46,037 bases of DNA from Escherichia phage ClaudiaMuster_Bas77, in sequence record PQ850598.1. One strand, given 5' to 3'. The position numbers and the translations under genes were made by a program. Shown one piece after another: positions 6,825-41,478 of this stretch (positions within the stretch are counted from its first letter, which is position 1; each line of letters starts with the position of its first letter). The notes under the pieces are model-generated. The model saw only the letters and a program-made list of their open reading frames with translations, was not told the DNA's origin and made no database searches.

Positions 6825-7433
6825 TTAATCATCAAGTTTCACGCCGGGAATTTTGCCTGCTGCGATGGCTTCATAAATTAGCTTAGCCTCATCCTCGCGC
6901 TTGTAATCTTGCGCTACCATTTCTAATACCGCGCAGATAGATTCAAGTACAGCCTCATGCTTCCTTTCTGCTTCTGTGCGAAATGGGATGAAAACATCCT
7001 TATTGGATGGGGTTATTGCGTAGTAAATCTCACCAGATGGTCTGATAACTATTTTTTCGCCATCAAGACCAATAACCTTGACTTTTCCCCATGACGTTCC
7101 GTTGCTGATATACTCACATTCACACCCAACTGGCGGCAGTCCTTCTCCGTTCCATGCTGAATTTTTCGATGCTGCGAGCGCTGCTTTGTATTGCCAATAG
7201 GTTACTATCGACTCCTTATGGTCGGAAGATAATGGCGTAGCCCATTCTTCTCCATACCAGAAATGCACAAGGCTATTGCCAGTGTGGTGTTTCCATGAGA
7301 ACCCTTCGTAGTGTGGGTCATTCGTGTCCCATACGCACAGTGAACCGTCATTATCTTGAGTAATTGACAGCGCGTTTTGAGGCCACCCACCACGCTTAGG
7401 CAATTCTTGAACTAACAGGTCGATAAGTTTCAT
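6825..7433 (-). CDS. hypothetical protein (202 aa)
   Basis: Track ORF; last gene of minus-strand cassette 6825-8112. Confidence 0.5.
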   Translation of the reverse strand: MKLIDLLVQELPKRGGWPQNALSITQDNDGSLCVWDTNDPHYEGFSWKHHTGNSLVHFWYGEEWATPLSSDHKESIVTYWQYKAALAASKNSAWNGEGLPPVGCECEYISNGTSWGKVKVIGLDGEKIVIRPSGEIYYAITPSNKDVFIPFRTEAERKHEAVLESICAVLEMVAQDYKREDEAKLIYEAIAAGKIPGVKLDD

Positions 7434-7445
7434 TTTTGTTCTCCG

Positions 7446-7661
7446 TTAATAATTTGGCTTTACGTCTTTCATTGTTAGTGGCTTCCATCCACTTGCGATT
7501 GCAATATCAATACAATCCTCAAGCGTTTCAGCTTTTATTGGCTCACCAACTTCACTATCATCAAATTTTCTCTGTATTTGATAGCCATCTACGACATAAA
7601 GAATCTCTACAGAACCATGTAGTGTGTGCATCGACTCAAGCCATTGCAGGTGGTAGCTCAT
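7446..7661 (-). CDS. hypothetical protein (71 aa)
   Basis: Track ORF; tightly packed with neighbours on minus strand. Confidence 0.45.
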   Translation of the reverse strand: MSYHLQWLESMHTLHGSVEILYVVDGYQIQRKFDDSEVGEPIKAETLEDCIDIAIASGWKPLTMKDVKPNY

Positions 7662-7978
7662 TTTGTTCCCCCTAATGCCTTATTAACCGCAGCACGCGCA
7701 TTATCTAGAGCGCGGCGCTTACTTGATGTTGTCCAGACTTTGCCGTCTGCAGAATCGTAGCATTCAATCATTTGCTGCGTAGCAATAATCAATTCGGAAA
7801 TAAGCATGTCGCGATATGCTAACTCAGCAGCAATAGCTGATTTTGAGTGCAATGATTCAGAGCTCATGGCGCCAACATGCTGTGAATAAAAGCCACCAAT
7901 TTCATCAAGGATATCTATATCCCGCTCTGCATACAGATTATTGCTGTCAGTCATTTGATATACTCCATAATCTCGCAT
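7658..7978 (-). CDS. hypothetical protein (106 aa)
   Basis: Track ORF; start overlaps upstream small ORF. Confidence 0.5.
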   Translation of the reverse strand: MRDYGVYQMTDSNNLYAERDIDILDEIGGFYSQHVGAMSSESLHSKSAIAAELAYRDMLISELIIATQQMIECYDSADGKVWTTSSKRRALDNARAAVNKALGGTK

Positions 7979-9779: not shown

Positions 9780-10085
9780 TCACTCTGCTGGCAATGTTGT
9801 TGGCTCATTAACAGATTCCTCAACCGCAGATTCAACGATGCGCACCAGTGAGCACTCAAGATTCGGTGCATTGTAATTACCAGCCAGAAACAGAACACTG
9901 CCGGTGCTGATTAATACCTGCTTTGCGTTCGCCTGTGACAGATTCTGCACGATGAATTGCGCTGTTTCCGTGCCGATTTTTAGCACTGCGCTGCCGTCGC
10001 TGTTCAGTGATACCGGTTGTGCTGAAGTGTCGGTAATATTGGTGTAGCTCGCGTTTCGTTGCGCGATTGTTATGTCTGTGAACAT
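9780..10085 (-). CDS. hypothetical protein (101 aa)
   Basis: Track ORF; start coupled to upstream stop. Confidence 0.4.
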   Translation of the reverse strand: MFTDITIAQRNASYTNITDTSAQPVSLNSDGSAVLKIGTETAQFIVQNLSQANAKQVLISTGSVLFLAGNYNAPNLECSLVRIVESAVEESVNEPTTLPAE

Positions 10086-10086
10086 A

Positions 10087-10308
10087 TTAGCCTCTTACGT
10101 TTAATTTGATTTTTCCATCCACGTCGCGTGATGCACACTCAACAGTGATTGTTAACTTGGTGATCTCTTCGACGTCTGCATCAAGAATCAAGCGGACGCA
10201 ACCACCAACTATTCTACCATCCTGATCAACAACGCGAATTTTATCATCGACTCTTTCAACGTGGAGCCAAACCTTTTCTTCATCACAGCCATTATTGAGA
10301 ATTGACAT
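10087..10308 (-). CDS. hypothetical protein (73 aa)
   Basis: Track ORF; ATG overlaps upstream stop. Confidence 0.5.
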   Translation of the reverse strand: MSILNNGCDEEKVWLHVERVDDKIRVVDQDGRIVGGCVRLILDADVEEITKLTITVECASRDVDGKIKLNVRG

Positions 10309-10739
10309 TATTTAATCTCCAGTTCTTTTGCGCGAATTGCGCTGTCAATGATGTCTTGCAAATCCTGTTCGCGCGATTTATGTCCGCGCTCGCCAGCCTG
10401 TAATGCCTTCTTGATTAAGTGCTGCAATGCAGGGTTGGTGACATTCCACGCCATGAGCACATCGTATACGTCAACAAATATACCCGGCTTAATCTCGTGC
10501 AGGTATTTGTTATCAGCCTCAGGAGCGCCAATGCAATCATTGAGGTCTTGTTCGTCGGTAATTGGCTCGCGGTATGCAATAACAACATCCCCGCGACCCT
10601 CAATCACTTCAATGCGATCAGCATAATATTTGCTTAGATAGAAAATCTCACCAGTCCTTTCTGACTTAACTACAAGATAAGCCGCGTTATGGCCAGCAAA
10701 ATCATCCTCATAACCTTTCAGATATTTCCACTTTTTCAT
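10308..10739 (-). CDS. hypothetical protein with DUF3310-like C-terminal segment
   Basis: 143-aa track ORF; C-terminal DVLMAWNVTNPALQHLIKKALQAGERGHKSREQDLQDIIDSAIRAKE resembles the DUF3310 phage family signature as I recall it. Confidence 0.45.
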   Translation of the reverse strand: MKKWKYLKGYEDDFAGHNAAYLVVKSERTGEIFYLSKYYADRIEVIEGRGDVVIAYREPITDEQDLNDCIGAPEADNKYLHEIKPGIFVDVYDVLMAWNVTNPALQHLIKKALQAGERGHKSREQDLQDIIDSAIRAKELEIK

Positions 10740-11482: not shown

Positions 11483-11700
11483 GAAAGTTCAGTACGTTAG
11501 TTGATTTAATTTTTGCTGACATAAGTGAGGATAACGCCAGAAGCGAGAAGTCAAAAAATCAGCGTCAGGATATTACGTTTCGCACACTGCTTAAGCAATC
11601 AATGCGCAATAAGAAGGAGTGGAGATACAGGCGCGACAGAGTTCTGATAAGACTGTGCAAATTGAATATGAATAAGATACTTAAGGATATGACCAAATGA
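11470..11700 (+). CDS. hypothetical basic protein
   Basis: Track ORF; alternative ATG at 11479 has better RBS spacing. Confidence 0.45.
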   Translation: MVEMRKFSTLVDLIFADISEDNARSEKSKNQRQDITFRTLLKQSMRNKKEWRYRRDRVLIRLCKLNMNKILKDMTK

Positions 11701-11945
11701 CAGCACCACATATGCCAATGATGAATGATAGCGGGTTGCTGTGCTGCCCATTCTGTGGCGGGAATGAAGTTTACTTGAATATTGATTTAGTGCTTGTATC
11801 TGTCGAATGCGGAGATTGCTGTGCAAGTTCAGGTGAATGGGGTTCACCGGAAACCGCTGTCAGGCACTGGAACACCCGCAACGGACACCTATACACCGCA
11901 GACGACTTCAATCAGGCAGCAGAGGAGCGTGATTATGGACTATAA
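11697..11945 (+). CDS. Lar-like restriction alleviation zinc-ribbon protein
   Basis: 82 aa; CCPFCGG ... VECGDCC ... AVRHWNTRN matches the Lar family pattern (CPFCG ... C..C ... WN.R) as recalled. Confidence 0.55.
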   Translation: MTAPHMPMMNDSGLLCCPFCGGNEVYLNIDLVLVSVECGDCCASSGEWGSPETAVRHWNTRNGHLYTADDFNQAAEERDYGL

Positions 11946-12423
11946 ATCACAAATCATGCGCGTGATTATGAATCACCCCGGTTCAACGCGCGCATATATT
12001 GAGAAGCATTGCGGAGGAAAGCATTCAAGCACCACAACGCATCGTTTGCATGAGATGCTTGCGCTTGGATTCATTCGCCGTGAGAAGTCCGTGATTCGCG
12101 GTGGGAAGTGGCAGTATAAATATTTCATCTCTGATGATGCAGCTGGTATTGATGATGCTATTAAGTGCCATTTGCTTGATAACGCTGGCGCAGAGGTGAA
12201 AGAAATCAGCGTAGCCACTGGCATTGATTACCGAATCGTGAAAAGCCGCATCCGCATTATGTTTCATAACGGTGATGTAACGCGAAGATATGACCACCAC
12301 AAGAAGCTGTGGCGTTATTCTTGGCATGAGAAGGAAGTTAACGTCAGCAACCTGTTTAATTCACTTCTTCGCAATGTAAGAGGTCGTCATGGGGAAAGCC
12401 AAACGCAAGAAGCAAGAGTATGA
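11935..12423 (+). CDS. hypothetical protein, possible winged-helix DNA-binding protein
   Basis: Track ORF 11794..12423; ATG at 11935 (MDYKSQIMRVIMNHPGSTRAYIEK); helix-turn-helix-like segments; weak call. Confidence 0.4.
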   Translation: MDYKSQIMRVIMNHPGSTRAYIEKHCGGKHSSTTTHRLHEMLALGFIRREKSVIRGGKWQYKYFISDDAAGIDDAIKCHLLDNAGAEVKEISVATGIDYRIVKSRIRIMFHNGDVTRRYDHHKKLWRYSWHEKEVNVSNLFNSLLRNVRGRHGESQTQEARV

Positions 12424-13547: not shown

Positions 13548-13741
13548 CTCCGTATATCTTTTGTTCATTATGGGCTGCTATCATTTAATCAGGAGGTAGC
13601 CCATGAATATAATCCCCATCACTTACTTTCTTACGCTATACGCACTTACCAATTCTCCATTGTTTGCACTGGCTACCGCCTCATGGTGCTATATCTCCCT
13701 GTGTTATAATTCGACCACAAACTAACCGTGGAGAGTTAACC

Positions 13742-15621
<1,880 letters not shown>

Positions 15622-15623
15622 TA

Positions 15624-16694
15624 ATGGAAAAGATTATTTTTACCAAAGACCTGGTAGCCAACTCCGCAGTGGTGGCTGACCAGTGGAAACATCTGACCAT
15701 CGACCGCAAGGTGTTCTGCAATGCAGAAGCTGAACTGGCGAAAACATACGGTGTTAACGCCACCGCACTGGTAACGAAAGATTACTGGCGCGACGTGGAT
15801 AACGTCACCACCCGCGTTTTCCGCAACGAAGCTGGTCAGGACATGATGGCTGACCTGATGGGCATCGCGGCAAACATCAACATCGGAAAGACTGTGGCAA
15901 TCAGCCGCATTGCTTCCGATGCTGGAAAGGTAGTCCGCACTCTGTCTGGTCAGGAGCCGGAAGATTTGGATAAAACTCGCTACGATTACACTGGCGATGT
16001 GATCCCAATCTTCAAAACTGGCTACAGCCGAGAATGGCGCGAGCTGCTGGGTATGCAGTCTGAAGGCTTCGACCCACTGCTGGACGATCAGGCCAACGTC
16101 ACCTTTAACCTGCGTTCCGACATGGCGCAGTATCTGCTGACCGGCGACCAGACTCTGAACGTGAACGGCGTTTACACTGGCTATGGTATCACCAACCACC
16201 CGAACACTGTTCAGGTTAACCTGAATGCTCCCGGCGGCCTTAATATCGACCTGCAAACTGCAACGCCAGACGAAATCGTGACCTTCTTCAATCAGGATTT
16301 CCAGGCTATTCTGGATGCGCAGAACGTATTTGAGCAGGTGACTCTGTGGGTTTCTCCGGCAGTGCGTCGTAGCTTCATGCGTCCGTATTCTGATGCGGCA
16401 GGCTTCAAAGGCGGCACTGTTGAGCAGTACATCACGCAGTTTGGCAATGGTCGCATCGGTAAGATTGGCACCAACTTCCTGCTGACTGGTAACCATTTCG
16501 TTGGCTACGTTCGCAACGACATGTACATCCGTCCGCGTGTTGCTCAGCCAGTTTCCACCTACGCGGCAGCTCGTGCCAACCCGCACGATAACTTTAACTT
16601 CCTCGTGTGGTCTGCTTTTGGTTTGCAGATTCGCAAGGACGCCACTGGCAAGTCCAGAGTGTTCAACGGCTACGGTACGCAAACTCCGGTGTAA
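15624..16694 (+). CDS. major capsid protein
   Basis: 356-aa ORF after scaffold and decoration genes, followed by strong terminators; a 390-aa antisense ORF here is a mirror artefact. Confidence 0.75.
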   Translation: MEKIIFTKDLVANSAVVADQWKHLTIDRKVFCNAEAELAKTYGVNATALVTKDYWRDVDNVTTRVFRNEAGQDMMADLMGIAANINIGKTVAISRIASDAGKVVRTLSGQEPEDLDKTRYDYTGDVIPIFKTGYSREWRELLGMQSEGFDPLLDDQANVTFNLRSDMAQYLLTGDQTLNVNGVYTGYGITNHPNTVQVNLNAPGGLNIDLQTATPDEIVTFFNQDFQAILDAQNVFEQVTLWVSPAVRRSFMRPYSDAAGFKGGTVEQYITQFGNGRIGKIGTNFLLTGNHFVGYVRNDMYIRPRVAQPVSTYAAARANPHDNFNFLVWSAFGLQIRKDATGKSRVFNGYGTQTPV

Positions 16695-16737: not shown

Positions 16738-16935
16738 ATGGCTAAATACGAAGTGATCGCTCGCGGAATCTTTGTTAAAGAGAAGGGCAAGATTCGTGAA
16801 TTGCAGCTTGGCGAGGTGATTACCGAGCCAGACGAGCATCTGCTACCAAAACTGCGCGTTATGCCAGAACTGGAAAAGACTTTCGAAGTCGCAACCCCGC
16901 AACAAAAGACGACAAAGAAAAAGAAAGCAGAGTAA
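16738..16935 (+). CDS. hypothetical protein (65 aa)
   Basis: Track ORF with GAGGTGA RBS, bracketed by two terminators. Confidence 0.5.
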   Translation: MAKYEVIARGIFVKEKGKIRELQLGEVITEPDEHLLPKLRVMPELEKTFEVATPQQKTTKKKKAE

Positions 16936-16938
16936 ACA

Positions 16939-16964
16939 AAACCCGCATCATGCGGGTTTTTTAT
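16939..16964. terminator. bidirectional rho-independent terminator
   Basis: ACCCGCAT c ATGCGGGT hairpin followed by TTTTTTATT; separates the plus-strand capsid operon from the converging minus-strand cassette. Confidence 0.65.
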
Positions 16965-16966
16965 TG

Positions 16967-17506
16967 CTACAGACGCATCGGCATAACAACAATCTTAGCA
17001 GTCTCGCCAGATGGCGCATTAAGACAGCAAACTGCGGCATTTGTGTTTCCATTAAGTTCAAATTTGATACAACTGAATTTAGGATTAAACAGCTTCGCCA
17101 CTTTCTCAACGTCAACCAGATATCCAGCATTGAAGCCAATTTCCTCTGCTGGCAAGGTCTGCTTCGGAATGACGCGATCAATATCAGGGAATCGCCCGTC
17201 AATCTCTTCACAGATACCAGCACCAACCATAACGCCAGCTTCATCATGATACGTTGCAATTTTCGACTTTGTATCAATGATGGCGTAGTCATAGCGTTTT
17301 GTTGGTGACTTGCCAATCTTGATAATCACATTTTCTGTAAGATTATTATCATGGTTTCCACCAATAAATGCGCGATGACCGTCAGTTGATGCAATACGAC
17401 CATCAGGCATAAAGCAAATGCCATTCAGGTAATATCGCACATCGTTGCGCGCCTGAAATATTAATGCTGATTCAAGTAATAGTTTGCCGATTTTTAGTTT
17501 CATCAC
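16967..17506 (-). CDS. truncated beta sliding clamp (DnaN)-like protein
   Basis: 179 aa; [54 protein letters not shown] and C-terminal IVVMPMRL match E. coli DnaN ([67 protein letters not shown]; recalled from memory). It lacks domain I and part of domain III. Confidence 0.65.
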   Translation of the reverse strand: [179 protein letters not shown]

Positions 17507-17676
17507 TTCACCTTAATCATATGCTGTTTTGCAACCTTCAGGCACTCCTCAAAAATGCCACCCTTCTTTGCGCTCTGATTGCGCTTGTAATACTGAACTG
17601 CCGCATCAATTGCCATCTGGTCGATTTCAGGCAGTTTGGTGCGTAGTTGTTTTTCAATGAATTGTTCTGGTGTCAT
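17503..17676 (-). CDS. hypothetical protein (57 aa)
   Basis: Hand-translated: MTPEQFIEKQLRTKLPEIDQMAIDAAVQYYKRNQSAKKGGIFEECLKVAKQHMIKVK; start overlaps the methyltransferase stop (TAATG), stop overlaps the clamp-like gene start. Confidence 0.4.
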   Translation of the reverse strand: MTPEQFIEKQLRTKLPEIDQMAIDAAVQYYKRNQSAKKGGIFEECLKVAKQHMIKVK

Positions 17677-18473
17677 TAAACGGACCTCATGAATGCTTTA
17701 ATGAATTCTGCTGCGACTTGTGGAACTATGGCATTGCCATAACCGCGCAATCGTCCCACTCTTGCGGATACCCCATGAGTTGCCTCGCAAAATCCGCCTG
17801 GTATGACTCTAGTTTCCTTATCTGCTCCATGGTTGGGTTTCCATGAATCCCATAAACATGAAGCCACATCTGGCGATAAAGAGTATCGTTCCTGAATTTT
17901 CCGTCCTTTCTGTAAAATGTCTTGCTGAGATCCCCGTAATCCTTCCATCCTCGCGCCGTTGGTGTCGCCCATCCTCGCGCCAAAGATGATTCTTTTCCTT
18001 TCCTGTGGAGAGCCGACGCTGCAAGCTGGCAATACTGACGCCCCGCAGGCGTAGCCTTTGTCTTCCAGGTTAAGGAATACAAAATCGAGCCAGTGCTTCC
18101 CAATTGCTGCTGCAACCTGCTCTCCAAACAGCAATTCAGGCTTGCACTCTCTGATGAGCCTGAGAAATGCTGGGGCAAGGTGTCGATCGTCGTCAAATCC
18201 GAGAGACTTACCGGCAACGCTAAACGGCTGGCAAGGTGGTGATCCTGTCCAGAGTCGAGTGCTTTCTGGTATTCCTGCCAGCTGGAGTGCAAGGGGCCAC
18301 CCTCCGATTCCGGCAAAGAAGTGACACTGTGTAAATCCTTCCAGGTCTGAAGGGGTGACTTCGGTGATTGATCGTTCATCGACATATCCGTAAGGAATTA
18401 GTTTATTGTTAATTAATTCACGCAGCCATGCCGCTGCGCCCTTGTCCCACTCATTGTAATAGTGGACCATCAT
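17676..18473 (-). CDS. DNA (cytosine-5)-methyltransferase, minimal
   Basis: C5-MTase motifs in canonical order: I FFAGIGG, IV SPPCQPFS, VI-like LFGEQV (ENV variant), VIII QERKR, X GNAIVPQV. Only ~265 aa with a short target-recognition region. Confidence 0.75.
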   Translation of the reverse strand: MMVHYYNEWDKGAAAWLRELINNKLIPYGYVDERSITEVTPSDLEGFTQCHFFAGIGGWPLALQLAGIPESTRLWTGSPPCQPFSVAGKSLGFDDDRHLAPAFLRLIRECKPELLFGEQVAAAIGKHWLDFVFLNLEDKGYACGASVLPACSVGSPQERKRIIFGARMGDTNGARMEGLRGSQQDILQKGRKIQERYSLSPDVASCLWDSWKPNHGADKETRVIPGGFCEATHGVSARVGRLRGYGNAIVPQVAAEFIKAFMRSV

Positions 18474-19282
18474 CACATCTTCTCCAGAATTGCCATCACC
18501 TCGTGAATATCAGCAACAGGAATCTGGATAAACTCCTCATTCTCTGCCACTACATGACCAGCAGGAAGAATAACGTGGTCAGCTGGCTTCAGTAACTCAA
18601 TCAGTCGGTCTACTGGCTTAATCTTTTTCGACTTAAGCACCTTCGCCGTTACCTTATCCTTGCCTTGCGCCTTCGCTTCTTCGACTGCCTCGTCGATAAC
18701 TTTAACCGCATCATCGCCATGTTCGCGAGTTACTGCTACGGCATTTGCATAGCTGATTTGCCCTGCACTGATTCGCGCTTTTACTTCGGCTGGCACATCA
18801 CCCAGTGACAGGTGCATCTGCACGTCAGAAACTGAGCGCCCTACCTTCTTGGCGATTTCCTCGTTGGTCCAGCCAAAACCCTTCAGTCGCGTGTAAGCCT
18901 TTGCGCGTTCAAACGGGTCAAGCTGCTTACCCTGACTGGACGACACCATGAAGGCGATTTTATCTGCTTCGCCTCCTGTGAAATCCTTGCACTCAATACG
19001 AACAATTGGTGCGCCACGCTCAATGGCACGCAACGCTCCGAGATAGCGATGCTGACCATCAAGAATGCGGATTCCCTTCTCGTCTGGAATAACTGTTAAT
19101 GCTGGCAATGGCTGACCTGACTCCCAGCACTGCGCGAAATACTCCACATGCTGCTCATCTGCCTCACGGATGTTGTATCCCGGCTCAAGATAGATTTGCT
19201 CAACTGGAACGAGATATGTTTTGTTAACAGCGATGCCGTTACGCGTTTCTTTGTCTGAATAGATTTTGCTGAGTGTTTTCAT
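18473..19282 (-). CDS. ParB-like nuclease-domain protein (DGQHR motif)
   Basis: Track ORF 18473..19294 (GTG); ATG at 19282. IRILDGQHRYLGALRAIERG carries the DGQHR signature of the DndB/ParB-like family; helix-turn-helix-like segment TNEEIAKKVGRSVSDV. Confidence 0.6.
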   Translation of the reverse strand: MKTLSKIYSDKETRNGIAVNKTYLVPVEQIYLEPGYNIREADEQHVEYFAQCWESGQPLPALTVIPDEKGIRILDGQHRYLGALRAIERGAPIVRIECKDFTGGEADKIAFMVSSSQGKQLDPFERAKAYTRLKGFGWTNEEIAKKVGRSVSDVQMHLSLGDVPAEVKARISAGQISYANAVAVTREHGDDAVKVIDEAVEEAKAQGKDKVTAKVLKSKKIKPVDRLIELLKPADHVILPAGHVVAENEEFIQIPVADIHEVMAILEKM

Positions 19283-19283
19283 A

Positions 19284-19481
19284 TCATTCACCACTTTCTT
19301 CTAACAATTGCTCATAATATGCGACGTATTCATTAGCCAGATGGTACAGGCGATCAGCAGACTTGCGTTCTGCATTGCTTAAGTCATCAATAGACTCAAT
19401 GTTGCCAATTGCATCAACACAATCATTGAAGTCTTGCTCCGTGTTACGGAATCTACAGTAGGACATGTTTGCCATAATCAC
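19284..19481 (-). CDS. hypothetical acidic protein (65 aa)
   Basis: Track ORF. Confidence 0.5.
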   Translation of the reverse strand: MIMANMSYCRFRNTEQDFNDCVDAIGNIESIDDLSNAERKSADRLYHLANEYVAYYEQLLEESGE

Positions 19482-19738
19482 TCCTCGTCACCCTGAAAAA
19501 TACCGCCAAACTCTTCAACCAGTTCATCAATGCATTCGTCCGCCTCAGCGCAATTGCCAGCGGCACTCAGCAGAATATCAACAGCCTCATCGTCAGGAAT
19601 GTTGATTGCCGAGAAGAACTCAACAATGCACATTTTCACAACCTGATATTCACCTTCTGTCTGGCAAGATGCGAAACTGCAAGCGACCGCATCAATCAGC
19701 TTGGCTTTGTCATCACTTGGGTTATCAATATCAAACAT
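19478..19738 (-). CDS. hypothetical acidic protein (86 aa)
   Basis: Track ORF; first gene downstream of the minus-strand promoter; GAGGTGA RBS. Confidence 0.5.
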   Translation of the reverse strand: MFDIDNPSDDKAKLIDAVACSFASCQTEGEYQVVKMCIVEFFSAINIPDDEAVDILLSAAGNCAEADECIDELVEEFGGIFQGDEE

Positions 19739-19778
19739 TTCATCACCTCTAACATTTATTGTTGTTTCTACGTCACTA

Positions 19779-19830
19779 ACTATAAACGCACCATCAATCT
19801 ACGTCAACAGGAATATGCTAAAATCATGCT
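19779..19830. promoter_or_regulatory. divergent promoter region (minus: TTGACG-17-TATAGT) with motif copies
   Basis: On the minus strand, TTGACG (rc of 19802-19807), 17-nt spacer, TATAGT (rc of 19779-19784). GTTTCTACGTCA and CAATCTACGTCAA motif copies present; plus-strand TAAAAT near 19819 precedes the 19855 gene. Confidence 0.55.
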
Positions 19831-19854
19831 AATCAAAAAACAGGAGATTTGAGC

Positions 19855-19974
19855 ATGGGTTCAACAAACGGTCCTTCTCGTTCGCGCGCTACTGGAAATA
19901 CCAAAACTGGCGGAAAAACTGGCGCAGTTAAGCCGAACGGTTCCACCCGTTCACCATCGCGCGGGAAGAAATAA
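19855..19974 (+). CDS. small highly basic protein (39 aa)
   Basis: Hand-translated: MGSTNGPSRSRATGNTKTGGKTGAVKPNGSTRSPSRGKK; AGGAG RBS; stop overlaps next ATG (TAATG). Confidence 0.45.
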   Translation: MGSTNGPSRSRATGNTKTGGKTGAVKPNGSTRSPSRGKK

Positions 19975-20414
19975 TGTTCGGCGCAGACATTGCCATCATG
20001 ATCATGTATGTGCTGGGTTTTGCCTGCACGGGCATGGTTGCGTTTCTGGTGTTCATTCCGGCAATGGCGATGTCTGTGTATCTTGGATGGGTGCTTGCTG
20101 ATTCATTTCCCGCCGAATATCTGTATTACCTTGCGCAGTCTATGGTCTGGCTATTCCCGGCTATTGCACTGCGCAAAAGTACAAAAATGGCGCTCTGCGT
20201 GCTGACGATGAGCCTTTACGAAAGGCTGGTAGCGATAGAGTCATTCGTATGGGAATTTATCACGCCTGTAGAAACGCCGCTTCATGCGCAGTACGCATTT
20301 ATTATTATCGGCATCCATCTGTTCATCCTTTCCATCACTTTTAAATGGGGCGGCGAAATTGGACATTATTCTTGGCGTGGTCGCCATTGTTTTTTCGCTG
20401 ATTCAAGTCTATAA
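19974..20414 (+). CDS. integral membrane protein (about 4 TM helices)
   Basis: 146-aa track ORF with four hydrophobic segments. Confidence 0.5.
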   Translation: MFGADIAIMIMYVLGFACTGMVAFLVFIPAMAMSVYLGWVLADSFPAEYLYYLAQSMVWLFPAIALRKSTKMALCVLTMSLYERLVAIESFVWEFITPVETPLHAQYAFIIIGIHLFILSITFKWGGEIGHYSWRGRHCFFADSSL

Positions 20415-20446
20415 GTGCTGGAAACATATCATCAGCGAGACACGCA

Positions 20447-20731
20447 ATGAACGAAACACTAAGGCAGGCAGCAGAGCAAGTTATAAGCGGGACGACAGGA
20501 CAGGTGATTGACAAGGCTGGATATGCCTCCATTGGTACTGGTATTGGACTGAAAGTTGCAGAGCAAACGCCTGTCACGCAGTCTTATTTTGAGGCTATGA
20601 TTCCACACAGTCTGACGGAGTGGGCGGCAGTAGCGTCAATCCTTGGCGCTCTGTCTCTGGTAATAAAGAACCTGTTTGAAATGTGGTGGAAAGTCCGGGA
20701 GTCAAAGAGAAATGACAGCACCAACACCTGA
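20447..20731 (+). CDS. hypothetical protein with C-terminal TM helix
   Basis: 94-aa track ORF; TEWAAVASILGALSLVIKNLF helix then charged tail. Confidence 0.45.
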   Translation: MNETLRQAAEQVISGTTGQVIDKAGYASIGTGIGLKVAEQTPVTQSYFEAMIPHSLTEWAAVASILGALSLVIKNLFEMWWKVRESKRNDSTNT

Positions 20732-23778: not shown

Positions 23779-24037
23779 GCGGTGGCTCTGGTAGTGGCAT
23801 CCAGTGGGTGGCATCACTAATCAAGCCATATTCATTAGTTTGAGGGTGATTACCGCGCCCATCTCCGTATTTAAAACTCTCCATAAAGCCATAATGTTTA
23901 TCACCATTAATGTTCACAAAACCGTAATAAGCAGGAATAACGCCGATCTCACACGTAACCAGTAAGGGAAAACTAGTTCTCCAGTTTAGCTCGCCAATTA
24001 CAGGCATCCTCTCACTGCACTTAATCCACTGGATCAT
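23771..24037 (-). CDS. DUF551-like protein
   Basis: 88 aa; C-terminal ...ATHWMPLPEPP resembles the DUF551 signature as recalled. Confidence 0.45.
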   Translation of the reverse strand: MIQWIKCSERMPVIGELNWRTSFPLLVTCEIGVIPAYYGFVNINGDKHYGFMESFKYGDGRGNHPQTNEYGLISDATHWMPLPEPPQE

Positions 24038-24177
24038 ATCACCTTATCCTCATCAAAAATCACACCAATCACACGAAGCAAGTCTTTCGCCATGCGTTCA
24101 GCTTCTTCATAGTCGTAACCCGCATCGACATACAAATCGGTGTAGAAAATCAGGTCGGATTTTGTTTGTTCGTTCAT
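24034..24177 (-). CDS. hypothetical acidic protein (47 aa)
   Basis: Hand-translated: MNEQTKSDLIFYTDLYVDAGYDYEEAERMAKDLLRVIGVIFDEDKVI; ATGA coupling on both sides. Confidence 0.4.
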   Translation of the reverse strand: MNEQTKSDLIFYTDLYVDAGYDYEEAERMAKDLLRVIGVIFDEDKVI

Positions 24178-24380
24178 TTTTTATCGCCGCTCTTAACTAA
24201 TGCCCAAACAAGCGCGGCGACCCAGCCAATAAAACTCCATCCAACGAGAATATTCAGTACGCAGATTGCAGTCGTGTTTACGTGCTTGCGTTGCAGAGCC
24301 ACAAAAGATGGCAGGAGGTACGCAAATATCACCAACCCAACAAAAAACAACAAAATAACGACGTCCATAGCTAACCTCAA
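24174..24380 (-). CDS. superinfection-immunity-like small membrane protein
   Basis: 68 aa; LLPSFVALQRKHVNTTAICVLNILVGWSFIGWVAALVWA fits the Imm_superinfect family pattern (..R.H.N......N...GWT..GW..ALIWA) as recalled. Confidence 0.5.
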   Translation of the reverse strand: MRLAMDVVILLFFVGLVIFAYLLPSFVALQRKHVNTTAICVLNILVGWSFIGWVAALVWALVKSGDKK

Positions 24381-24400
24381 CTGTTAATAACTTGTTTATA

Positions 24401-24694
24401 TTACATGCCATTCTTTTCACACAAAGCAACAGCCACATCACGCAATTGCTCTTTAGTCATATCCTTGCGTGCATAAACCATTTCTACGATAGCAAGGCCG
24501 ATTATTTCTGCTGATTCGTTGTTTTTTGCAGAACCTTTTACCACCACTTCCGCAAGATTCTTGCTGATACCGTTATCGCGAACATCAGCAGTGTTCATGG
24601 CGATTTCTCCAATGTTTTTGCACATATCGGAAGTCGCACTGGCGGCAAAAGAAGAAGCCAATAGTACAGATGCAATCAACATTTTAATTTTCAT
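24401..24694 (-). CDS. secreted / periplasmic protein with signal peptide
   Basis: 97 aa; N-terminal MKIKMLIASVLLASSFAASA with AxA-type cleavage site; no lipobox. Confidence 0.5.
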   Translation of the reverse strand: MKIKMLIASVLLASSFAASATSDMCKNIGEIAMNTADVRDNGISKNLAEVVVKGSAKNNESAEIIGLAIVEMVYARKDMTKEQLRDVAVALCEKNGM

Positions 24695-24733
24695 AACTCA
24701 CCTCATTTATTCATCACTCGTTTCGATGACTTG

Positions 24734-41447: not shown

Positions 41448-41478
41448 AAGAAACCCTCCATATGGAGGGTTTTTTGTT
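41448..41478. terminator. bidirectional rho-independent terminator
   Basis: CCCTCCA ta TGGAGGG hairpin followed by TTTTTT. Confidence 0.65.

Follow-up and report, generated by a model that had tools for sequence, protein, structure and literature searches.

The window, 46,037 nucleotides in length, is a complete Skatevirus-like phage genome with 98.5% identity to Bas79, and it carries four minus-strand islets of the kind considered here. The islet under study is an operon of six tightly coupled minus-strand ORFs (16967-19738) plus one nested ORF, seven in total, and it separates, as originally predicted, the major capsid gene (15624-16694) from the head-tail genes, which start at ~20712. The six predicted ORFs are all present: 19478-19738 (86 aa, p86), 19284-19481 (65 aa, p65), 18473-19294 (273 aa, ParB-like), 17676-18476 (266 aa, C5-methyltransferase), 17503-17676 (57 aa, p57) and 16967-17506 (179 aa, clamp-like). 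The seventh, at 17726-18385 inside the methyltransferase gene, did not figure in that prediction.

We read the gene junctions directly off the sequence, using the ATG starts annotated in relatives. Three of them (ParB/methyltransferase, methyltransferase/p57 and p57/clamp) are 1-nt overlaps of the form TGATG or TAATG, whereas p86 and p65 are separated by 2 nt and p65 and the ParB-like gene by 1 nt. Stop/start overlaps had been proposed throughout; the longer ones came from the use of upstream GTG starts. The description of the operon as an insulated, translationally coupled single transcription unit holds, as it has a conserved promoter, a terminator and an orientation opposite to that of the late genes.

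The predicted sigma-70-type promoter reads TTGACG, a 17-bp spacer and TATAGT on the minus strand (19807..19779), matching 10 of 12 consensus positions. A promoter scan by itself does no better than chance (3 sites, against 5.1 expected in shuffles), and we accept the promoter not because of the scan but because its -35 and -10 hexamers are kept in relatives: the footprint is found in 66 of 75, with TTGACG in 65 and TATAGT in all of those 66, while the 17-bp spacer varies. Two copies of the element TGACGTAGA lie here on the same strand: one overlaps the -35 hexamer (19798..19806), and the other, a candidate operator at 19767..19775, repeats it in direct orientation a short way downstream of the -10. 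The genome has 13 copies of the corresponding 9-mer, TGAYGTAGA, where 0.62 would be expected, most of them in intergenic promoter regions, and the pair, spaced 30-31 bp apart, is conserved in 66/75 relatives. At the other end, a stem-loop at 16938..16960 (10-bp stem, 3-nt loop, T-runs on both strands) scores as an intrinsic terminator on each strand, as the original prediction of a bidirectional terminator had it, and closes the operon as well as the capsid transcription unit that converges on it. The operon is a real, conserved leftward backbone feature of Skatevirus/Roufvirus-like siphophages. Judging from its orientation and promoter type, it is probably expressed early or mid-infection by the host RNA polymerase.

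Core and cargo genes of the operon

Gene content was counted in the 64 relatives with intact flanks (promoter counts refer to 75 relatives). The ParB-like gene is present in all 64, p57 in 63 and the clamp-like gene in 49, while p65 is found in 13, p86 in 9 and the C5-methyltransferase in only 8. The fixed core is a ParB/KorB-like protein, followed by p57 and, in most relatives, by a half beta-clamp. Cargo is hypervariable and occupies three slots: upstream of the ParB-like gene, between it and p57, and after the clamp. What fills the post-ParB slot differs among relatives, from a C5- or an N6-methyltransferase to an HNH endonuclease or small zinc-ribbon-like proteins; this phage carries two small acidic proteins and the C5-methyltransferase as its cargo. 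The idea that the cassette is a moron insertion fits the cargo genes p86, p65 and methyltransferase, but not the near-universal ParB-like and p57 genes.

The identities first proposed for the three recognizable proteins are borne out, with matches to PF00145 for the methyltransferase (E=1e-21), to PF17762 for the ParB-like protein (E=2.6e-11) and to E. coli DnaN for the clamp-like protein (E=1e-11). The ParB-like protein (18473..19282, minus strand; 269 aa from the ATG at 19282; phrog_1033) is 79-99% identical across the 64 relatives. It has an N-terminal ParB-type domain and a ParB HTH domain, as in the ParB/Spo0J/Noc/KorB family; PF17762 gives 44 bits where 22.6 is the cut-off, the KorB model gives E=4e-6, Thermus Spo0J matches residues 44-206 (E=6e-13), and the best PDB relatives are Spo0J, ParB, Noc and KorB. 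It departs from that family at the CTP-binding boxes, where DGQHRYLGA stands in place of GERRxRA and SSSQGKQL in place of ENxQRExL, and it scores 37.5 bits with TIGR00180, under the cut-off of 58.45. With GERR replaced by GQHR, and ENLQRE by SSSQGK, canonical CTP binding and hydrolysis are doubtful. It is also, unlike its family, encoded by a virulent phage; no ParA partner is annotated in the near-identical Bas79 genome. The DndB-like, DGQHR-domain family was considered as an alternative assignment: the DGQHR context is present, but NCBIfam returns only ParB/Noc-type models and PADLOC gives no match. The protein may be a sequence-specific DNA-binding regulator or organiser, possibly acting at TGAYGTAGA sites. 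We found no palindromic parS-like repeat in the genome, and TGAYGTAGA, its sole enriched repeat, lacks the palindromic form of parS and the KorB operators. Nothing ties the ParB-like protein to TGAYGTAGA, and we counted this and the missing symmetry against such a role.

Of the small proteins, p57 (17503..17676, minus strand; phrog_4439) is the basic, near-invariant core member, with a pI of 9.4. The two cargo proteins are acidic: p86 (19478..19738, minus strand) strongly so, with a pI of 4.05 from 22 D+E and 3 K+R and with a ribosome-binding site GAGGTGA ahead of it, and p65 (19284..19475, minus strand; phrog_8760; ~63 aa from the ATG at 19475, rather than the earlier GTG at 19481) with a pI of 4.25. 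No relative by sequence was found for p86 in PDB, Pfam or NCBIfam, nor for p65 in PDB. We considered both as DNA mimics of the Ocr/ArdA type, and searches of PDB, Pfam and NCBIfam linked neither of them by homology to any anti-restriction protein that has been characterised. Pointers toward anti-restriction are confined to the label of phrog_14587 ('anti-restriction protein'), which p86 matches, and to the acidity of the two proteins.

A truncated sliding clamp

The last gene of the operon (16967..17503, minus strand; 178 aa from its ATG) encodes a truncated beta-sliding-clamp-like protein. It corresponds to DnaN residues ~136-255 and ~315-366, that is, to domain II and the second half of domain III, and retains the stretches RYYL, TDGHR, GRFPD..RV.P, IGFN..Y and the C-terminal VVMPMRL. 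The AF2 model (pLDDT 84, pTM 0.83) has E. coli beta clamp as its best Foldseek matches (TMq 0.6-0.68). The resemblance to a three-domain dimeric ring clamp goes no further: the 179-aa product forms ~1.5 domains in the AF2 model, aligns only to residues 136-302 and 315-366, and reaches 36 bits with TIGR00663, for which the cut-off is 138. Equivalents of R152, Y153, L155, T172, G174, H175, R176, P242, R246, V247, N320, Y323 and V360-L366 are conserved, many of them invariant across the phage family; together with the RYYL- and TDGHR-type motifs, we take these to be nearly all of the residues lining the pocket for clamp-binding motifs between domains II and III. The family comprises proteins of ~170-200 aa in 271 phage records, and its PHROGs label is 'RusA-like Holliday junction resolvase'.

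Because domain I and residues ~256-314 are missing, the protein has no ring-closing interface. Such a half clamp would not encircle DNA but would present a peptide-binding pocket and, to go by the conserved residues only, may bind host or phage proteins bearing clamp-binding motifs, sequestering or recruiting them. A simple rationale in which it recruits the host Pol III is not general, since Kagunavirus carries the half clamp and also encodes its own putative DNA polymerase.

We think it unlikely that the protein is instead a true processivity factor, several copies of which (four, for example, would supply six domains), or a mixture with host beta, form a ring that tethers a polymerase. This would suit the homology to DnaN, the conservation of the putative pocket residues and the lack of a DNA polymerase gene in this phage. 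It would also suit E. coli beta*: this form, reported by Skaliter and Livneh in 1996, is said to be a shorter form starting at ~135 that is still a clamp, and the phage protein begins at the equivalent of residue ~136. The beta-clamp dimer interface, however, is made of domain I and the first half of domain III, both of which are missing here, and the AF2 model shows no helix in the second half of its domain-II part, the place of the DNA-facing helix in a clamp domain.

Dual coding in the methyltransferase gene

In frame 0 (17676..18473, minus strand; 265 aa from the ATG at 18473) this cargo gene encodes a C5-cytosine methyltransferase with database matches (PF00145, 78 bits against a cut-off of 22; M.HhaI, E=4.5e-12; phrog_363, E=3e-75). 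Catalytic motifs I (FFAGIGG), IV (PPCQPFS), VI (GEQV), VIII (PQERKR) and X (GNAIVPQ) are all present, in an unusual arrangement with the motif II-like NEWDK ahead of motif I. Between motifs VIII and X, where a target recognition domain and motif IX were expected, frame 0 has neither, and changes in the region resemble those in a frame that does not code (16% are synonymous, compared with 13% in the control frame). The substitution phase favours frame 0 in the N- and C-terminal parts of the gene and leaves the middle as an unconstrained spacer.

The nested ORF (17726..18385, minus strand; 219 aa) is read in the +1 frame and matches phrog_1008 (E=1e-19). Across 72 homologues, a median 84% of the gene is open in the +1 frame, compared with 20% in +2, and the +1 frame contains 10 stops where 111.5±6.8 are expected under synonymous shuffling; the +2 frame is normal (230 against 247). 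In the middle region the most variable codon position shifts to the +1 wobble, and a comparison of the window with L096 gives synonymous fractions there of 16% in frame 0, 39% in +1 and 13% in +2. Over its N-terminal ~110 codons, on the other hand, the +1 ORF evolves as frame-0 sequence. An ATG heads the ORF near codon 30 in most genes, and the Shine-Dalgarno sequence ahead of it is weak. The +1 product matches 245 phage records; its homologues lie in the +1 frame of annotated methyltransferases in K1G, epsilon15 and RcSalem, and the products from phages of E. coli, Rhodobacter, cyanobacteria and Salmonella are 29-48% identical over >90% of their length. The gene is dual-coding, and the +1 ORF is kept open and under selection family-wide.

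The nested ORF probably encodes the DNA-recognition subunit of the methyltransferase, to judge from the sequence motifs that it carries: a WATP module of the WxTP type and a motif-IX-like segment, FARQLMGYPQEWD. By motif inspection, the latter has the form LNPxHSRWLMGxPxxW in the +1 frame of 53 of the 72 homologues; profile confirmation of motif IX failed, and the Pfam match was no better with a frame 0/+1/0 hybrid. The AF2 model of the +1-encoded part has a pLDDT of 33-59, and its Foldseek matches to M.HhaI are weak. The methyltransferase would then consist of two polypeptides, a catalytic alpha (motifs I-VIII, a spacer and X) and a beta supplying the target-recognition modules and motif IX, which together may 5-methylate a specific site on the phage DNA. 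The protection so gained would be limited to restriction enzymes with that recognition site.

The closest known parallel to this architecture that we considered is M.EcoHK31I, a heterodimeric C5 enzyme of a type II restriction-modification system whose beta ORF lies inside the alpha gene in another frame (PMC2836561). As in the phage gene, the second ORF is nested entirely, alpha has motifs I-VIII together with X, and beta supplies motif IX (here by motif inspection). The N-terminal part of beta is dispensable in M.EcoHK31I (PMC2836561), which parallels the N-terminal ~110 codons of the phage +1 ORF that evolve as frame 0. The phage enzyme, unlike M.EcoHK31I, is an orphan with no restriction partner, and its motif I follows the motif II/III-like sequence. 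The two also differ in where recognition is placed: the target recognition domain of M.EcoHK31I was assigned to alpha, not beta (PMC2836561), while selection in the phage gene indicates that the WxTP recognition region is read in the beta frame and that the middle of alpha is a spacer.

A single polypeptide made by two programmed frameshifts (0, +1, 0), with the order I-VIII, TRD, IX, X and no beta, would also account for purifying selection that runs 0/+1/0 along the gene, and the corresponding hybrid has the canonical motif order and a plausible IX-X spacing. We nevertheless consider it improbable. The +1 frame is open for ~110-140 codons upstream of the point where the shift is needed (the 10 stops against 111.5 expected), and the middle of frame 0 has 0 stops where 134 are expected, albeit in genes chosen as intact frame-0 ORFs; a single shifted chain needs neither. 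The ATG at the head of most +1 ORFs and the experimentally studied precedent M.EcoHK31I, which is two polypeptides (PMC2836561), also argue for separate subunits. That the nested ORF arises from codon composition and has no function, with the 266-aa frame-0 protein as a complete enzyme, was already disfavoured and is scarcely credible: frame 0 alone is annotated in most GenBank records, Pfam and PHROG profiles match it along its length, and the +1 part has a low pLDDT and brings no Pfam gain, but shuffling predicts ~11 times more +1 stops than are seen with +2 normal, the wobble periodicity of the middle region is that of +1, the +1 products can be aligned across distant phages, and frame 0 is without any motif IX.

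Linkage of the genes and reading of the operon

The original prediction joined the methyltransferase, the ParB-like protein and the clamp mimic into one coordinated machine for anti-restriction, DNA marking or host takeover, in which, for example, ParB might load the methyltransferase onto phage DNA and the clamp mimic tether it. Co-transcription and translational coupling of the genes speak for this, as does the recurrence of two methyltransferase classes directly after ParB; fusions of a ParB N-terminal domain to a methyltransferase also exist elsewhere. The proposal nonetheless fails on linkage. The methyltransferase is present in just those 8 of 64 relatives and the full set of six genes in none. 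In Dhillonvirus, Kagunavirus-like and Gorganvirus phages the clamp-like gene stands by itself, and the methyltransferase family, with no link to ParB or clamp, has other neighbours: a helicase gene (K1G), genes for integrase and terminase (RcSalem) and a replication gene (epsilon15). As the three genes are unlinked in other phage genera, they do not form a co-dependent triad. Nor is a broad anti-restriction effect evident: Bas78-80 have the same ParB, methyltransferase, p57 and clamp genes, and the BASEL paper describes Skatevirus isolates as markedly sensitive to the restriction-modification systems tested (PMC11990801). All told, we hold a coordinated machine to be very improbable; the genes of the operon would share a promoter and timing, not a single biochemical pathway.

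T1-like phages offer a comparison for accessory gene islets within a structural module. Like the leftward islets of small siphophages, the operon is a small cluster between late genes, opposite to them in orientation, with its own promoter and terminator and variable content. It differs from them in its invariant core (the ParB-like protein and p57) and its conserved promoter/operator, and for this reason it is not a simple insertion. On balance, we lean toward reading it as a seven-ORF early/middle operon of fixed core and swappable cargo, with a two-polypeptide methyltransferase, a half clamp that binds through its pocket and a ParB-like DNA-binding protein, the functions of all its products being ones that we infer from sequence.

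Beyond this phage, we put forward, tentatively and with less assurance, that an orphan C5-methyltransferase family of phages is obligately two-subunit and, separately, that the half clamp is a widespread decoy or adaptor for host clamp-binding proteins. If so, the two-subunit methyltransferase family would number at least 245 phage records and reach from coliphages to the phages of Rhodobacter and of cyanobacteria, with a specificity subunit (WxTP repeats and motif IX) whose coding sequence takes up ~85% of the catalytic gene in the +1 frame. The spacer of alpha would be the functional region of beta and vice versa, an overprinted two-subunit architecture that would be essentially unannotated, and recognition modules may be swapped in such phages without touching the catalytic core.

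A conserved operon core with exchangeable cargo

The window is a complete 46-kb siphophage genome, with 98.5% identity to Escherichia phage SusanneMuster_Bas79 across 94% of its first 25 kb and about 90% identity to the Skatevirus cluster of Salmonella, Escherichia and Klebsiella phages (PMC11990801). Going by the Bas79 annotation, it encodes an SSB, an exonuclease VIII-type protein, a primase and a helicase and lacks a DNA polymerase, and four minus-strand gene islets (6825-7978, 9780-10739, 16967-19738 and about 24000-24700) are scattered among the plus-strand structural and lysis genes. Rfam and tRNA scans of the window found no Rfam families and no tRNAs.

The third islet contains all six of the minus-strand open reading frames originally predicted, in the order p86, p65, ParB-like gene, C5-methyltransferase (MTase), p57 and clamp-like gene. 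The junctions were said to be stop/start overlaps throughout; with start codons placed at the ATGs chosen in related records, ParB/MTase, MTase/p57 and p57/clamp do overlap by 1 nt (TGATG or TAATG), but at the other two the genes stand 2 nt and 1 nt apart, and the Shine-Dalgarno sequences fall inside the end of the upstream gene. The promoter, TTGACG-17-TATAGT at 19807..19779, is as described. A consensus scan alone is not above chance (3 promoter-like sites, 5.1 expected), so the support is comparative: the promoter is found in 66 of 75 related loci, with the -35 TTGACG in 65 of these 66, the -10 TATAGT in all 66 and a variable 17-bp spacer, and the leader and ribosome-binding site are conserved irrespective of which first gene comes next. 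The bidirectional terminator also holds up, as a stem-loop at 16938-16960 that scores as a terminator on both strands. It is common to the operon and to a plus-strand gene for a 65-aa basic protein (phrog_2138, 16738-16935), which follows the major capsid gene, precedes the terminator and is kept in 62 of 64 relatives. On the other side, three small plus-strand genes (19849-20731) separate the operon from the head-tail adaptor gene; the 94-aa membrane protein among them is present in 64/64 relatives, while the 41-aa ORF and a 146-aa multi-pass membrane protein labelled "lipoprotein" are present in only 26/64.

To follow the genes through relatives, we took 79 loci around ParB-like homologues from IMG/VR, mapped the window proteins onto them, and restricted gene counts to the 64 loci having both flanks. 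The ParB-like gene is in all 64, p57 in 63 and the clamp-like gene in 49, while p65 is in 13, p86 in 9 and the C5-MTase in 8. ParB-p57-clamp is the most frequent arrangement (29 loci), and none of the 64 has the full six-gene set. When the islet ORFs were clustered, the position immediately following ParB proved hypervariable: its occupant is a C5-MTase, a DPPY-type N6-MTase, an HNH endonuclease or one of several small Cys-rich and unknown proteins; the slot upstream alternates among p86 and/or p65, a 207-aa phrog_2260 protein (Bas79, ZCEC08) and a phrog_1273 protein. The alternative MTase cargo after ParB is of the N6/N4 type and carries a DLPYGT motif; it is split into two ORFs in one relative (L052:6813-7520) and has its C-terminal part fused in frame to p57 in another (L075:7166-7690).

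Beyond this clade the linkage disappears. In a Dhillonvirus, a Kagunavirus-like phage and a Gorganvirus the clamp-like gene stands alone, antisense within the structural module, and in a Vibrio phage it belongs to a replication module. ParB-like homologues occur in many other phages, and the MTase family has a helicase gene as its neighbor in K1G, genes for integrase and terminase in RcSalem, and a replication gene in epsilon15. Given this scatter, the rarity of the MTase and the lack of any six-gene locus, the idea that MTase, ParB and clamp form a coordinated module does not stand when judged by the refuting condition that the original prediction set for itself. The original prediction is confirmed as an observation and partly supported as an interpretation: the conserved unit is the promoter, the ParB-like gene, p57, usually the clamp, and the terminator, with cargo slots, and the operon is an ordinary, already sequenced backbone feature of a known phage group.

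A reading frame nested in the methyltransferase gene

The annotated MTase (frame 0, 266 aa) has motifs I, IV, VI, VIII and X. Inside its gene, on the same minus strand, is a +1 ORF of 219 aa (17726-18385). Its product matches phrog_1008 (E=1e-19), frame 0 matches phrog_363, and tblastn found 245 phage records matched by a +1 product. In the K1G, epsilon15 and RcSalem records, which we inspected, the match is to the +1 frame of an annotated cytosine methylase, and in K1G the authors annotated this ORF as an "Mte8-like protein." Among 72 MTase homologues (40-75% identity), the longest stop-free run spans a median 84% of the gene in +1 and 20% in the +2 control frame; W.TP is present in the +1 frame of 68 and WLMG.P..W in 53. 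The +1 region encodes shuffled WxTP modules and a motif-IX-like LNPxxSRWLMGxPxxW, which reads FARQLMGYPQEWD in the window.

Synonymous-codon shuffling from codon 30 to motif VIII gave 111.5±6.8 expected stops in +1 against 10 observed, compared with 247 expected and 230 observed in +2. In the middle region, shuffling frame 0 as coding predicts 46.7 stops in +1, where one is seen; shuffling +1 as coding predicts 134 in frame 0, where none is seen, a count conditioned on the selection of intact frame-0 ORFs. In whole-gene pairwise scores the +2 frame scored too, the N-terminal half being conserved at the nucleotide level, and we therefore relied on region-wise and phase-wise tests instead. Substitutions peak at the frame-0 wobble position in the N-terminal (0.339) and C-terminal (0.264) parts and at the +1 wobble position in the middle (0.254). 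For the window's own TRD type, synonymous fractions between the window and locus L096 follow the same division: for frame 0, +1 and +2 they are 45%, 20% and 18% in the N-terminal part and 16%, 39% and 13% in the middle, and in the C-terminal part 86%, low (3/21 changes) and none. From these sequence comparisons, the frame 0/+1 split would be the large/small domain division of a C5-MTase.

A single MTase chain made by a double frameshift would also draw on both frames. We favor two polypeptides, alpha from frame 0 and beta from +1, because both frames are open far past any frameshift need and an ATG near codon 30 heads the +1 ORF in most of the genes. Frame 0/+1/0 hybrids gained nothing in Pfam score or coverage over the annotated products. 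An AF2 model of the window hybrid (24-sequence alignment) is confident in the large domain, with pLDDT 33-59 in the +1-encoded part, and its Foldseek matches to M.HhaI are weak only. The +1 product has no family in Pfam or NCBIfam; in a large protein database such products are unnamed or "hypothetical," apart from one stray "restriction enzyme" label. A literature search on the +1 ORF ("Mte8") and dual-frame phage MTases yielded only an M.EcoHK31I engineering paper as relevant. The nested ORF, a predicted M.EcoHK31I-like subunit, is an under-described, family-wide feature.

The gene has two further peculiarities. At the MTase N-terminus (18300-18476), NEWDK, which resembles motif II of M.HhaI, comes before motif I (FFAGIGG) in this family, and the TIGR00675 alignment places residue 6 at profile position 25, an apparent non-circular permutation of the AdoMet-binding motif order. 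In some Klebsiella-phage relatives (L042:3665-5105; also L060, L071 and L083), the +1 ORF continues into an endonuclease VII/HNH domain (phrog_2633, E=1e-39), and the coding end for the C-terminal ...AAEFIKAFMRSV is duplicated downstream, as though the MTase gene had received an insertion of the homing-endonuclease type.

The half clamp and the question of anti-restriction

By phmmer, residues 8-170 of the clamp-like protein align to E. coli beta 136-302 and residues 121-179 to beta 315-366, ending in an identical VVMPMRL. The AF2 model (pLDDT 84, pTM 0.83) has E. coli beta clamps as its top Foldseek matches. The label "RusA-like Holliday junction resolvase" (phrog_3007), found in PHROGs, RefSeq and pharokka-style annotations, is rejected, as sequence and fold are those of a DnaN fragment; the PHROG label looks like an annotation error. 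Invariant columns in the phage family include DVRYYL, T.GH, P107, R111, I123, Y129-L130 and M175-P176-R178, with G124 and F125 near-invariant; the equivalent positions in clamp-peptide structures line the pocket for clamp-binding motifs.

Neither domain I of E. coli beta nor the first half of its domain III has a counterpart in the phage protein, which prevents closure of the usual ring. A ring-forming processivity factor is a live rival to the role we infer, that of a decoy or adaptor presenting the pocket. Nor can the role be simply compensation for a missing polymerase, because K1G encodes a putative DNA polymerase and its genus carries the half clamp. Our literature search on truncated phage clamps found no relevant paper, and the half clamp, predicted to be pocket-only, is a second under-described feature of the operon.

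A broad anti-restriction function for the cassette is unlikely, since the Skatevirus isolates of the BASEL paper were markedly sensitive to the RM systems tested (PMC11990801) and Bas78-80 share its ParB, MTase, p57 and clamp genes. This argument does not extend to p86 and p65, which are absent from Bas79. Both proteins are strongly acidic (pI 4.05 and 4.25, respectively); Pfam, NCBIfam and PDB sequence searches detected no relatives of known function, and the PDB search gave nothing significant for a suspected Ocr-like N-terminus among them. The "anti-restriction" label comes only from a PHROG annotation, and PADLOC, run on all proteins, returned generic MTase matches only. A Lar-like restriction alleviation protein is annotated elsewhere in near-identical Bas79 (Bas79_0028; window homologue at about 11700-11950), so anti-restriction functions, if any, are not confined to the cassette.

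A repeated promoter element and the ParB-like protein

The ParB-like protein, with a ParB HTH domain and a ParB-type N-terminal domain, is the most conserved islet gene product (79-99% identity). It had been called DGQHR/ParB-like, but no DGQHR/DndB-family or PADLOC match was found; aligned with Spo0J, it has GQHR for GERR and SSSQGK for ENLQRE. We found no parS- or KorB-like repeated palindromes. Two long palindromes were seen, TCGTTGACAGCTGTCAACCA (14885-14904, one mismatch), within the 13664-15154 ORF and upstream of the head-decoration gene, and the perfect AACCCTCCATATGGAGGGTT (41452-41471), located between 41447 and 41477. The second of these resembles a further bidirectional terminator or a binding site.

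The genome does contain 13 copies of TGAYGTAGA (at 2726, 8117, 8146, 10966, 10991, 19767, 19798, 24736, 28695, 38073, 40442, 44532 and 44549), against 0.62±0.84 expected, a number reached in 0/100 shuffles. Most are paired in intergenic or divergent promoter regions (8117/8146, 10966/10991, 19767/19798, 44532/44549, and 40442 with a variant copy), with differing orientations and spacings. The pair at the cassette promoter, of which one member overlaps the -35 and the second comes after the -10, is conserved at a distance of 30-31 bp in 66/75 relatives. Copies head at least three of the four minus-strand islets, suggesting that the islets are co-regulated. TGAYGTAGA could function as an operator or belong to an extended type of early promoter; that it is the target of the ParB/KorB-like protein is speculation.

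As a conserved element, TGAYGTAGA offers a handle on early-gene regulation in potentially therapeutic siphophages. A 1.5-domain clamp reduced to its peptide-binding pocket would be a small, naturally evolved agent against the hub of the bacterial replisome and repair, itself an antibiotic target. Should the nested beta subunit exist, hundreds of phage "orphan Dcm-like" methylases have been wrongly annotated as one-protein enzymes; the annotated ORF would then not suffice for predicting or engineering their specificity, and, among overlapping genes on one strand in phages, the alpha and beta frames would be one of the longest and most widely conserved pairs.
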